Shown here: positions 14,811 to 17,351 of the stretch, piece after piece
Numbering within the stretch: position 1 is the stretch's first letter
How the letters are laid out: every line of letters begins with the position of its first letter
Source of the DNA: a virus
Lineage: Duplodnaviria; Heunggongvirae; Uroviricota; Caudoviricetes
Length of the DNA: 19,575 nt
IMG/VR virus record: IMGVR_UViG_2681813228_000025
Reading direction: 5' to 3' (one strand)
Notes under the pieces: model-generated
Database searches by the model: none
The model's input: only the letters and a program-made list of their open reading frames with translations
Told to the model about the DNA's origin: nothing
Translations under genes and position numbers: made by a program

Positions 14811-15252
14811 AACGTCGGGTATACAAAGCCCATCGTTGAAAAAACTTTATCCATATTTTTTTGAAAAATGCAAGCATCACGTTACCATCTTCATTGAAAA
14901 ACCTTTATCGTGTTACTTTTATCAATTGCACTTCAGCATAGAGTTATCCCAGACAGCACTTTAAAGACTTCTACATTACACACACCTTGTCTCCCCTTCT
15001 CGTCATATCTGCAAGACCGATATGCATGACGCAGTACATACGCTGAACTGCTTTATCCATCTGCATATTCTAGTGCTAAAGCGACTTCAGTAGCAGAAGC
15101 AAAATTCTGCTACTGTGCCAAACAGGAGTAAACGTCATTTTATGTAATGTTGATTGAGTGGTCATAGTATCACCTCAATAACAACTCTCCGCCCTATCAT
15201 TGAAAGCATATCTGCTATAATTAAAAAGCCACTTAACATCAGGACTTCAAAC

Positions 15253-15438
15253 ATGACTTCAAATCAATCTGAAAACGAAATAGTTAATACTGTCAAAAAA
15301 TATGCATCATGTGCTGACGATGCTTTGCAGGGAGGCAAAGAAAACGTTAAAGATAAATTTAGAAATTATCCACTGACTAGCGTGGTGGTTGCTCTAAGCA
15401 TAGGGTTAACGCTTGGTTTTATTATTGGCAGAAAATAA
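15253..15438 (+). CDS. DUF883 (ElaB/YqjD/YgaM-like) tail-anchored small membrane protein, 61 aa
   Basis: C-terminal NYPLTSVVVALSIGLTLGFIIGRK matches the family's NPW...G..LG.L..RR anchor pattern. ATG at 15253 with AGGA 8 nt upstream; the track ORF starts at TTG 15154. Confidence 0.5.
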   Translation: MTSNQSENEIVNTVKKYASCADDALQGGKENVKDKFRNYPLTSVVVALSIGLTLGFIIGRK

Positions 15439-16598
15439 TCTTAAGCCTCCCATAAGTCGTACACAATCACATCTGCCAATTAATGTTCCATTAGTAAAAA
15501 ACCACCTCCTGTGGAGGTGGTTTAAGGATAGCAACAAAACACAACCTACTTTAAACGGCTATATTCTGCTATATCTAAATAATAGGATCTCTTTTATCAT
15601 CCGGTGAAAAAGGGTTCAATGGTTGCCCCTCATCAGGACGCTCAACGGGCTCATCATCAGGCTTACGGTCATCAAAATCTGGATGTTCTGACATATTCCA
15701 CCCTAGTATTTTTATGCAGGAAAGATTATTTACTCTTTCCGGTTGTCTTTTTTATTATCCTTACCCTTACTATCCTCATTGTTTTTATTCCTGTCATGAG
15801 ATTTTTCATTTGAATCACTTACATATAATGTATTCATGGGGACTCCAGTTTTTTAACAGCACAATGCTGTATCTGTAATTATAGATGCAATTAATCATTA
15901 TGATATGTATGTTTCATGCACAAATCAGAAACGCATCTAGTGCTTTAATTAATATGGATTTTATTGCTGTAGATTTACAAAAACTTTCATAATTAACCAG
16001 CAATATAAGACAAATATCTCATAACATGAGGAAAATCAAGCTCATTTAAAGCAATTTATAATTTTCATCCTACTGTTTTCCCTGCACTGCCAACACAAGT
16101 TTCATCGCAACACTCTGACAAGACACCTATAAAATCAGTTTCGTTATCACCTTAATTTTCTTCATGGGTAACAAACCGGTAATACATCGATAGCCAGATT
16201 TCCGGCGTAAGCCATTTATTTGCAGCCTGATTGATGCGCGTTACTGTTACCTCTTCCCTGCATCAGGATGGCTTCTCCAGATGATATGGTTAATCACACT
16301 GGAACATTCACGCATAACCGTTTCCTTCATATCCTGCCGTTTTAGCATGTCTTTTCCCCTTCTTGTTAATATCAATAACTAACACAAATCTAAAAAAGCC
16401 AGCAATGTAAAAAAACTGCATTCACGGCAACCATAATGGTTACCGTTCTGCACAAAGTTTATGTCCACAAAAAAACCACTCTGCGCGGCTTATTGATATT
16501 TTCCACAGGTATGCATATAAGGCTCATCATTGGAAAACTCTTTGCACGTTTCCTTAGAAAATACAATCGTTATGTCGCCATCGTTCGGTGAAAATCAT

Positions 16599-17351
16599 TT
16601 ATCTCGTCACTTTTCTTAATTGCACCTCAGCATATGCTTCTTCCTGCCAGCACTTTGTAACCAGTTTATCAATGACATCTGCATATCCTTTGTACCACTG
16701 ATAATCCGTCAGGTCTGGTACCAGCTTCTGGACATGACACCGCGCCAGTGTCGTTGATAAACGACTAAACCGGTTTCCATTGCAACGCCCACAAACCTTA
16801 TAAACAGGCGTGCTATGAAGCCGGGTTCTTTTTTCATCCAGGACAATACCTTTCCCCTTACACCCTCTGCACGCTGTGCTGACTTCTCCCTTACCATGGC
16901 AATGCTGACATAGTTCCTTCACCCACTCTTCCTTGATAACAGATTCCCCACTTCTGGAGTGTTTCACCACTTCGCGCAATACATTATGAAATCCAGTACC
17001 AGCACAATACTCACAGCGAGCCTTACTTGCCGCAGACCTGGAATAATCAGCAAAGGCAAAATTCACAAGGTAAGGGATGATCTGTAACCGGATTTCTTCA
17101 CTCAATTTGTTCAATGTCGGATTATCCATTGCCATCGCGTAATTGAGCAGACCTTCAATCGCAAACTGAGGATCCTGAACACCAACTTTTGCCAGGAATA
17201 AGGCAAAACCAAGCGGAGCTTTCGACTGCACCATCCCCTGCGCAGCCATCACATCTGTTATTGTTAAACCACCCGAGCCTGTCGCCGGTGCGTCATCACT
17301 CAATTTTGGAGATTTTGGGGAGTAATATTTTGGTAAAGCTTCAAGGTTCAT
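16599..17351 (-). CDS. quuQ: Late-gene antiterminator Q (phage 82 Q-like), 250 aa
   Basis: Cys-rich zinc-binding region CQHCHGKGEVSTACRGCKGKG; ATG at 17351. Sits upstream of the lysis region on the same strand. Confidence 0.8.
   Translation of the reverse strand: MNLEALPKYYSPKSPKLSDDAPATGSGGLTITDVMAAQGMVQSKAPLGFALFLAKVGVQDPQFAIEGLLNYAMAMDNPTLNKLSEEIRLQIIPYLVNFAFADYSRSAASKARCEYCAGTGFHNVLREVVKHSRSGESVIKEEWVKELCQHCHGKGEVSTACRGCKGKGIVLDEKRTRLHSTPVYKVCGRCNGNRFSRLSTTLARCHVQKLVPDLTDYQWYKGYADVIDKLVTKCWQEEAYAEVQLRKVTR

Follow-up and report, generated by a model that had tools for sequence, protein, structure and literature searches.

The window analysed here, the whole 19,575-nucleotide stretch deposited as IMG/VR virus record IMGVR_UViG_2681813228_000025 (Caudoviricetes), contains the antiterminator gene quuQ (ydfT) and, behind it, two copies of a late-regulatory block, called copy A and copy B below. 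We consider it probable that this locus is a late-gene switch of the Q-lambda family that was split by an old recombination accident, and that QuuQ acts in trans at copy A. In the usual cassette, the Q gene is followed within about 60 bp by the promoter pR' with its Q-binding element (QBE), by a pause element (AACGATGGG) and by the terminator tR'. In the window, the place where the late promoter is normally found, about 30 to 60 bp past the Q stop codon, holds AAAGAG as a -10 and no canonical sigma-70 promoter. The cassette is present but split: the canonical promoter, that of copy A and presumably the working one, lies about 1.75 kb from the Q stop codon, unlike the roughly 60 bp of lambda, and a degenerate copy occupies the normal place. 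Such a locus is an ordinary mosaic scar, a structural variant of a well-known system, and leaves the understanding of Q antitermination unchanged.

A Qin-like defective prophage of Escherichia coli O121 strain RM8352 matches the window at 100% identity. The minus strand of the window is the direction of both early-right and late transcription, and the order along it is ydfU, quuQ (16599-17351), the repeat and insert region, cspF (on the plus strand), cspB and the holin and lysozyme genes. Literature searches with quuQ, ydfT and the phage name PhiR63_1 returned no paper on the locus.

Two copies of a Q-end and late-promoter module

A preliminary description of this DNA had reported that the last codons of quuQ, with about 40 bp downstream, recur some 1.7 kb further on. 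The repeat is found where it was placed, and it is longer than proposed. Its ungapped core pairs 14890-14962 with 16584-16656 (73 nt, 77% identity, spacing 1694), and a gapped local alignment covers about 190 bp, from 14772-14962 (copy A) to 16468-16656 (copy B), with 132 of 188 positions identical (69%) and a score of 64; it spans a hairpin in each copy (14775-14798 in A, 16473-16491 in B). The region is AT-rich, so that a chance or low-complexity resemblance was considered, but the best of 300 dinucleotide-preserving shuffles scored 19 (12.2 +/- 1.6) and the best of 110 other, unrelated segments of the window 15, and the same block was recovered, at a constant register relative to the Q stop codon, from over 20 independent loci, which leaves chance a next to negligible probability.

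Other details of that description were borne out as well. The C-terminus of quuQ reads ...EAYAEVQLRKVTR, the second copy reads on the minus strand as ...CCLG-stop-LYAEVQLIKVTR-stop, and the hairpin at 14775-14798 has 10 pairs, is bidirectional and begins 107 nt past the stop codon of the remnant. As judged from the alignments, each copy is a module made of the last 19 Q codons, a lambda-type pR', a sigma-dependent pause element and tR'. The elements are the following:

14772-14904, minus strand: regulatory block of copy A, a canonical lambda-type pR' by conservation and by alignment with lambda
14775-14798, minus strand: predicted tR' of copy A, a strong hairpin followed by a U-tract
14829-14837, minus strand: pause element of copy A, AACGAT (14832-14837) and GGG (14829-14831)
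14844-14849, minus strand: -10 of copy A, TAAAGT
14850-14867, minus strand: spacer of copy A, at the QBE position
14868-14873, minus strand: -35 of copy A, TTGCAT
14905-14962, minus strand: Q remnant of copy A, the last 19 codons (CCLG-stop-LYAEVQLIKVTR-stop), with an internal stop
16468-16656, minus strand: copy B, comprising the Q 3' end (16599-16656) and a degenerate late-promoter and terminator block
16473-16491, minus strand: weak 7-bp hairpin of copy B, aligned with the hairpin at 14775-14798
16523-16531, minus strand: pause-like element of copy B, AATGAT-GAG
16538-16543, minus strand: sequence at the -10 position of copy B, AAAGAG, with T-12 and T-7 lost
16544-16560, minus strand: spacer of copy B
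16561-16566, minus strand: -35 of copy B, TTGTAT
16599-17351, minus strand: quuQ (ydfT), intact, encoding a 250-amino-acid Q antiterminator of the Q-lambda family

QuuQ matches the Pfam profile PF03589 (E=1.3e-49), which is that of the Q-lambda family (PMC9388147), together with the DnaJ_CXXCXGXG zinc-finger profile, and the lambda Q structure 7UBM aligns with it over its full length, in both the N- and the C-terminal parts (phmmer, E=2.9e-34). By these matches QuuQ is a member of the Q-lambda family; unlike lambda Q, it has an extra segment of about 40 residues with the CXXCXGXG zinc finger. It is 92 to 97% identical to the Q proteins of K-12 Qin, SfV, mEp460 and an Stx2k phage; the identity is 97% to SfV Q and 92% to K-12 QuuQ, both of which adjoin promoters of the consensus type.

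Conservation and predicted use of the two blocks

Loci with a Q homolog were taken from species-representative genomes of Escherichia, Kosakonia, Mangrovibacter, Phytobacter, Atlantibacter, Scandinavium, Buttiauxella and Entomohabitans (Q 39 to 97% identical to that of the window), and the DNA downstream of Q was aligned. Thirty-eight non-coding columns are at least 90% conserved in 16 non-redundant single-copy modules. Copy A agrees with all 38 of them, and copy B with 29, the worst agreement among all sequences compared; what it has lost includes two T residues of the -10 (T-12 and T-7), three of the conserved positions in the spacer and, in the GGG, the middle G. Compared with SfV segment by segment, copy B is identical at 60 of 61 positions of Q coding sequence and at 8 of 17 in the spacer, whereas copy A is identical at 45 of 61 positions in its Q remnant, at 17 of 18 in the spacer, where it keeps all conserved positions, and at 6 of 6 in the -35. 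The preliminary description had taken copy A for the relic; given its canonical regulatory part, as against the broken -10 and poor fold of copy B, we came to the opposite view where the regulatory part is concerned. One locus of the set calls for a separate remark: a 22.9-kb contig labelled as a Veillonella parvula metagenome-assembled genome (JAGZPX010000007.1) has a Qin-type quuQ region whose Q shows 93% identity and whose block of Q end and promoter does not differ from the one in Escherichia ruysiae. It is almost certainly a mis-binned Escherichia contig.

When lambda pR' was aligned with the DNA after Q from K-12, SfV, mEp460, the Stx2k phage and several prophages, a layout common to quuQ-type loci appeared: TTGCAT, 17 nt, TAAAAT or TAAGAT, 6 nt, AACGATGGGC, about 35 nt, and a GC-rich hairpin with a U-tract. 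Copy A maps onto lambda pR' (TTGACT-17-TAAATT-6-AACGATGGG), its pause element AACGAT-GGG (14829-14837) is identical to that of lambda, and its tR' hairpin aligns with the terminator annotated by the depositors of SfV. Copy A and its single-copy relatives resemble the lambda cassette in the succession of -35, 17-nt spacer, -10, 6 nt, an identical AACGATGGG and a predicted intrinsic terminator; they differ from it in the -10 (TAAAAT or TAAGAT in the quuQ-type relatives, TAAATT in lambda) and in the leader, with a predicted length of about 63 nt in the window against the 194-nt 6S RNA of lambda. The leader predicted for copy A starts at about 14836, ends at the terminator and has a folding energy of -28.2 kcal/mol (z=-5.3), while that of copy B reaches -10 kcal/mol (z=+0.88), no better than shuffled sequence.

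A composite motif, TAnnnT-N5-7-AA[ACT]GAT[AG][AG]G, occurs once per locus in all 17 loci tried. In 16 of them it stands at +58/59 from the Q stop codon (close relatives) or at +31/32 (Q about 40% identical), and within the window, on the minus strand, it is found at copy A only. A simple promoter scan picked out neither block, its 9-of-12 rule being too strict for promoters of this family. From these comparisons we infer that late transcription starts and Q loads at copy A, and we take copy B for a vestige or, at most, a weak promoter.

A promoter displaced from its Q gene has a precedent in Mangrovibacter plantisponsor (a contig of strain DSM 19579, our locus L044), where a QuuQ homolog (66% identity) is followed, 1.79 kb past its stop codon, by a canonical pR', pause element and terminator. 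At 1884-3760 of this locus, about 1.75 kb with two Arc-like proteins and a 348-residue antirepressor-like protein comes after Q, then a terminator; the displaced promoter reads TTGCAA-17-TAGATT-6-AACGATGGGC and has its own terminator. Since pR' lies there behind an arc/ant module, adjacency of Q and pR' appears to be dispensable. The two cases differ in that the intervening DNA of M. plantisponsor is an immI-like arc/ant module, with neither a vestigial promoter after Q nor a Q remnant.

The expected operation of the split switch can be outlined from work on other phages. The QBE lies between the -35 and the -10 of pR' and is bound by Q (PMC4914094). Q loads on a polymerase paused at the -10-like AACGAT (+1 to +6) followed by GGG, the lambda pause element (PMC4005639), and the modified polymerase then reads through tR'. 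The unrelated Q of phage 82 still loads when QBE and pause element are shifted to about 100 nt past the promoter (PMC4914094). Finally, pR' promoters fire constitutively, and the terminated leader that they produce can act as a regulatory small RNA, StxS for instance (PMC7547250). In a lysogen carrying the double arrangement, copy A pR' would fire constitutively and terminate at 14775-14798, yielding a leader of about 63 nt comparable to lambda 6S RNA or StxS. Upon induction, QuuQ translated from the early-right transcript would bind the copy A spacer (14850-14867) in trans; the polymerase, starting at about 14837/14836, would pause on AACGAT, take up QuuQ and pass tR' and the convergent cspF into cspB and the holin and lysozyme genes. 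Transcription of the DNA between the copies would come only from early read-through out of Q or from promoters within that DNA.

Several points weigh against this reading. What we propose for the function of either copy is deduced from consensus and conservation, and the order of the recombination events that we suggest below is tentative, divergence after duplication and two parental phages both fitting the data. In the double haplotype, Q carries substitutions found in no other allele (Y115, S180, V186, C205 and V243), which may alter its DNA specificity. Copy B retains a TTG in its -35, an alternative hexamer AAGAGT (A-11/T-7, 18-nt spacing), the -10-like AATGAT and a run of U7, and it may have weak promoter activity; AATGAT is also present in apparently functional single copies (O157 FRIK2069 and loci L045 and L047). 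Copy B could also be a divergent, unsampled functional lineage rather than a decayed one. Lastly, the promoter changes of copy A in the window, together with a substitution in QuuQ, P199S, may impair the late switch of this O121 prophage.

These last changes deserve a closer description. Below about 14874, copy A is identical to K-12 except for two changes, at 14845 and 14856. The promoter changes private to the window are an extra A, which gives an 18-nt spacer, and TAAAGT in place of TAAAAT; the form with 17 nt and TAAAAT is kept in all 14 other full-length carriers and in K-12, and in the phages PhiR63_1 and HannyBb copy A is of the K-12 type TTGCAT-17-TAAAAT. P199S (codon 199, 16755-16757) affects a proline that is invariant in nine other aligned QuuQ-type proteins and in lambda Q. 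In the RM8352 prophage (7270-7581 and 13562-14981 of its locus, L001), moreover, the ydfR homolog has an internal stop and rem is cut by an IS3-family insertion, with IS66-family elements further on. The stop in ydfR and the interrupted rem confirm that the prophage is defective and, with the promoter changes and P199S, suggest that its late switch may be decaying; the changes in copy A and QuuQ give the impression of a domesticated prophage whose lysis switch has decayed or been silenced.

Three other scenarios for the two blocks are considered. In one, copy B would be the working late promoter and copy A a left-over, and the Q-modified polymerase would read through the intervening moron and the terminator of copy A. 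Copy B stands at the canonical place after Q, as in lambda and 16 of the 17 relatives; it retains the TTG, the -10-like AATGAT and a hairpin with U7; it is at least 99% conserved in all carriers; and the private Q substitutions could accompany a changed binding site. However, its 9 violations among 38 positions fall on sites kept even among Q only 39% identical, T-12 and T-7 included, its spacer shares 8 of 17 positions with the type used by a 97%-identical Q, and the predicted fold of its leader is no more stable than those of shuffled sequences. The copy B type by itself was found in no genome or phage, whether in the E. coli genomes, the phage collection or IMG/VR, and C205, at a hypervariable residue that is R, H or L elsewhere, shows no covariation with the promoter spacer. 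We therefore regard this scenario as unlikely.

In a second scenario, which we hold to be somewhat less plausible still, both copies would be active, as tandem constitutive late promoters that each produce a terminated leader of the StxS or 6S kind and both serve for Q loading after induction. Both blocks keep a pause-like element and a terminator-like hairpin, and constitutive pR' promoters with regulatory leaders are known from StxS (PMC7547250). The objections made to copy B apply here too; in addition, neither leader has an Rfam match, and that of copy B is without stable structure. Equally doubtful in our view is the idea that copy B was repurposed, as a weak Q-independent promoter or a low-affinity Q-binding decoy, the split being a selected architecture that active phages maintain, and not a scar. 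If it were true, copy B would tune the timing of lysis, or drive two tiny charged open reading frames (ORFs) and an RNA antisense to the 61-residue gene described below. More broadly, and as part of this doubtful reading, a pR' moved away from Q, of which the window and M. plantisponsor give two independent cases, could be a way in which phages repeatedly bring cargo under early instead of late control.

Structural predictions complete the picture of the two leaders. An Rfam scan of the whole window at E<=1 gave no match in 14700-16700, either leader included, and in a structured-RNA scan of both strands the only standouts were the terminators and a leader hairpin near 16430. The latter is a strong 10-bp hairpin (ACGGUAACCAUUAUGGUUGCCGU) at 16427-16450 on the minus strand, past the weak terminator of copy B and about 8 nt before a U7 run; the equivalent sequence of SfV does not obviously form it.

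Distribution and origin of the double arrangement

Among 5,426 complete E. coli genomes, the insert (14963-16513) is present in 40 at 99% identity or more, and the same count and identity were obtained for the junction of the copy A remnant (14876-14990) and for the copy B core (16468-16575). The three lists of hits overlap extensively, and were taken to be the same 40 genomes. These include O121:H19, O103 and O84:H7 strains, isolated from humans, marsupials, a dog, pigs, a yak and a beluga. Two deposited phages, PhiR63_1 and HannyBb, have the double arrangement, as do 15 IMG/VR contigs, in which the features are linked wherever the contig is long enough, at a distance of 1,633 or 1,601 bp. 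Copy B core, insert and copy A remnant always co-occur, as a single linked haplotype: the copy B core was found solely in the 40 genomes with the insert and in the 15 IMG/VR contigs. No full-length Q with the 3' end of the remnant was detected in the E. coli genomes, the phage collection or IMG/VR.

In K-12 derivatives and many other genomes, the flanks align as two pieces spanning about 1,506 bp, and about 1,694 to 1,695 bp of the window are absent. The single block of K-12 is 99 to 100% identical to copy A from cspF to about 14874, and is then of the normal SfV type. This supports the earlier claim that two homologous late-regulatory copies flank DNA that relatives lack, K-12 Qin having one copy and being without about 1,694 bp. 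In the Salmonella phage 118970_sal3 (a 77-kb record) two places match, and the one inspected has the normal single arrangement. Among the 15 full-length carriers (14772-16665), the single-nucleotide polymorphism sites per 100 bp number about 15 in the Q 3' end, about 11 in the leader of copy A pR' and 1 to 3 in the interior. Their concentration in the flanks suggests that the flanks keep recombining with other phages, whereas the unique interior has no partner.

The earlier description proposed a module swap at the joint between Q and the late promoter. The outer breakpoints of the insert are elsewhere: one is inside Q, 19 codons from its end, where Q is fused to a decayed 5' fragment of rha, and the other is about 11 codons into an orf47-like gene, past the copy B terminator. 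The proposal nevertheless holds in part, as identity to SfV steps sharply near the quuQ stop codon, from 90-100% in the Q gene to about 75% in non-coding copy B, which points to a recombination boundary near this joint. Comparison with SfV shows no local identity trough at the copy B promoter but a uniform 75% or so from 16590 to 16320, and because of this uniformity decay and a divergent parental lineage are not separable. Copy B may come from such a lineage, the Q gene having later been replaced by homologous exchange. Whichever origin is true, its aligned sequence is unlike the promoters of the present Q's relatives.

The history that we regard as most likely has three steps. Two lambdoid right arms would first have been joined out of register, one breakpoint falling past one tR', some 11 codons into orf47. 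A deletion would then have removed the stretch between a point within rha and the last 19 codons of the second Q. Finally, the two halves, being redundant, would have decayed in a complementary manner, B keeping the Q coding end and A the cis elements. In phage PhiR26_1, rha is in the nin region, upstream of Q and on the same strand, so that a deletion from rha to Q would yield exactly the junction of rha fragment and Q stub. The outcome recalls duplication-degeneration-complementation, a general evolutionary model for duplicated modules, in that a different sub-function is kept by each copy; unlike in that model, the parts concerned are a gene end and a trans-target in a phage mosaic, and not two paralogous genes.

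Could the double form instead be ancestral for Qin, K-12 having become single-copy by homologous deletion between A and B? K-12 lacks exactly the repeat spacing (1,694-1,695 bp), is A-like downstream and has an intact Q end. Yet its segment from the stop codon to the -35 is of the normal SfV type and not an A/B chimera, which rules out K-12 as an A x B recombinant, and copies that are 69% identical, with very short identical runs, make a poor RecA substrate. In addition, the other genera, with the exception of M. plantisponsor, have pR' immediately after Q, so that the single copy is the ancestral state and the double one derived. We find an ancestral double form very improbable.

The intervening DNA and related loci

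The following features lie between the two copies:

14983-15165, minus strand: decayed 5' fragment of rha (MTTQSTLHKMTFTPVWHSSRI..., with in-frame stops), abutting the Q remnant in the same orientation
15253-15438, plus strand: 61-residue ORF with a C-terminal glycine-zipper membrane tail, antisense to late transcription
15497-15523, no strand assigned: perfect 11-bp hairpin between the convergent units (-18.2 kcal/mol, z=-3.1)
15575-15694, minus strand: candidate ORF for an acidic, proline-rich product of 39 residues (MSEHPDFDDRKPDDEP...)
15730-15837, minus strand: candidate ORF for a highly charged product of 35 residues (MNTLYVSDSNEK...), with a GGAG ribosome-binding site and TATAAT upstream
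15838-16317, no strand assigned: AT-rich stretch of about 480 bp (about 34 to 36% GC) with no convincing ORF
16318-16467, minus strand: leader past the copy B terminator and the first 11 or so codons of a gene similar to SfV orf47 (ATG at 16348)

The insert had been described as AT-rich, and its GC content is indeed 36.9%, compared with 44.5% for the window, 46% for quuQ and 54% for ydfU; it is close to the 38% of the adjacent csp region. Of the 700 bp or so reported to be without an ORF, an ORF-less stretch is there, but it measures about 480 to 630 bp and is flanked by small ORFs and gene fragments. Within it, 15838-16317 has no phage homolog and no Rfam match, and 32 bp (16192-16223) are missing in two IMG/VR contigs. 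At the quuQ side, 16318-16467 shares about 75% identity with the leader that follows tR' in SfV, CREC-591, mEp460 and Stx2c phages, and this homology of the copy B leader and orf47-like piece to other phages stops near 16318. At the other side, the rha fragment has 79% DNA identity to the 5' end of rha in PhiR26_1 (tblastn E=5e-8, with stops).

The 61-residue ORF is likely to be the cargo of a moron. It matches phrog_11629 over its full length (E=4.8e-47; function unknown), and is annotated as hypothetical protein WP_000203370; homologs were found in E. coli only, with no Pfam domain recorded for the database homologs. It had been labelled a DUF883 gene, a label that is not supported: there is no DUF883 hit, and DUF883_C is below threshold (E=0.14, 12.3 bits against a cutoff of 27, residues 40-61 only). 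Signals of the moron type surround it, namely a perfect extended -10 (TGCTATAAT, 15213-15221) and an AGGA ribosome-binding site upstream, and downstream the 15497-15523 hairpin, all of them consensus matches only. The hairpin is among the most structured windows of the region, and UUUUUU follows it on the minus strand, so that it is terminator-like in the late direction. An orientation antisense to phage transcription is usual for morons expressed in the lysogen, and the 61-residue ORF has it. The 35- and 39-residue ORFs are both annotated in PhiR63_1 and HannyBb; no family was found for them, nor for two others of 37 and 33 residues, in Pfam, NCBIfam or PHROGs. Some 1.5 kb long and lying upstream of the presumed working late promoter, with its own small genes around a shared hairpin, the insert would thus behave as a moron.

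Like other morons of lambdoid Q and late-operon regions, this is extra AT-rich DNA that close relatives lack, inserted between Q and the lysis genes and equipped with a candidate promoter and a candidate terminator; the same hot spot holds stx2, tRNAs, an AraC regulator or a methylase in other phages of the quuQ type. Those morons are downstream of pR' and tR' and controlled by Q, whereas in the window the moron precedes the promoter that we judge functional, has gene fragments at both ends and carries a main ORF antisense to late transcription. A closely related locus is K-12 Qin (quuQ/ydfT - cspF - cspB - essQ), which has the same gene order, 99 to 100% identity from 14483 to about 14874 and a Q 92% identical, and unlike the window a single block: the regulatory part of copy B, the moron, the rha fragment and the Q remnant (1,694 bp) are absent from it.

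With its fossils (the truncated rha and orf47, the Q stub and the pseudo-promoter), the locus offers a checkable example of how lambdoid mosaics are built. For annotation, it implies that the late promoter should not be assumed to lie in the sequence right after Q, and the composite motif could serve as a simple late-promoter finder for this Q family, including stx2c and stx2k phages. As Q proteins and pR' promoters of the QuuQ type also control the latter phages, the anatomy of promoter, pause element and terminator described here applies to toxin expression.

The only real hits of the Rfam scan lie outside the repeat region and are two full-length matches to the cspA thermoregulator on the minus strand, at 13707-14130 and 10844-11230, scoring 158.9 and 112.2 bits against a gathering score of 78. 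They span the 5' leaders and coding regions of the prophage genes cspB and cspI.

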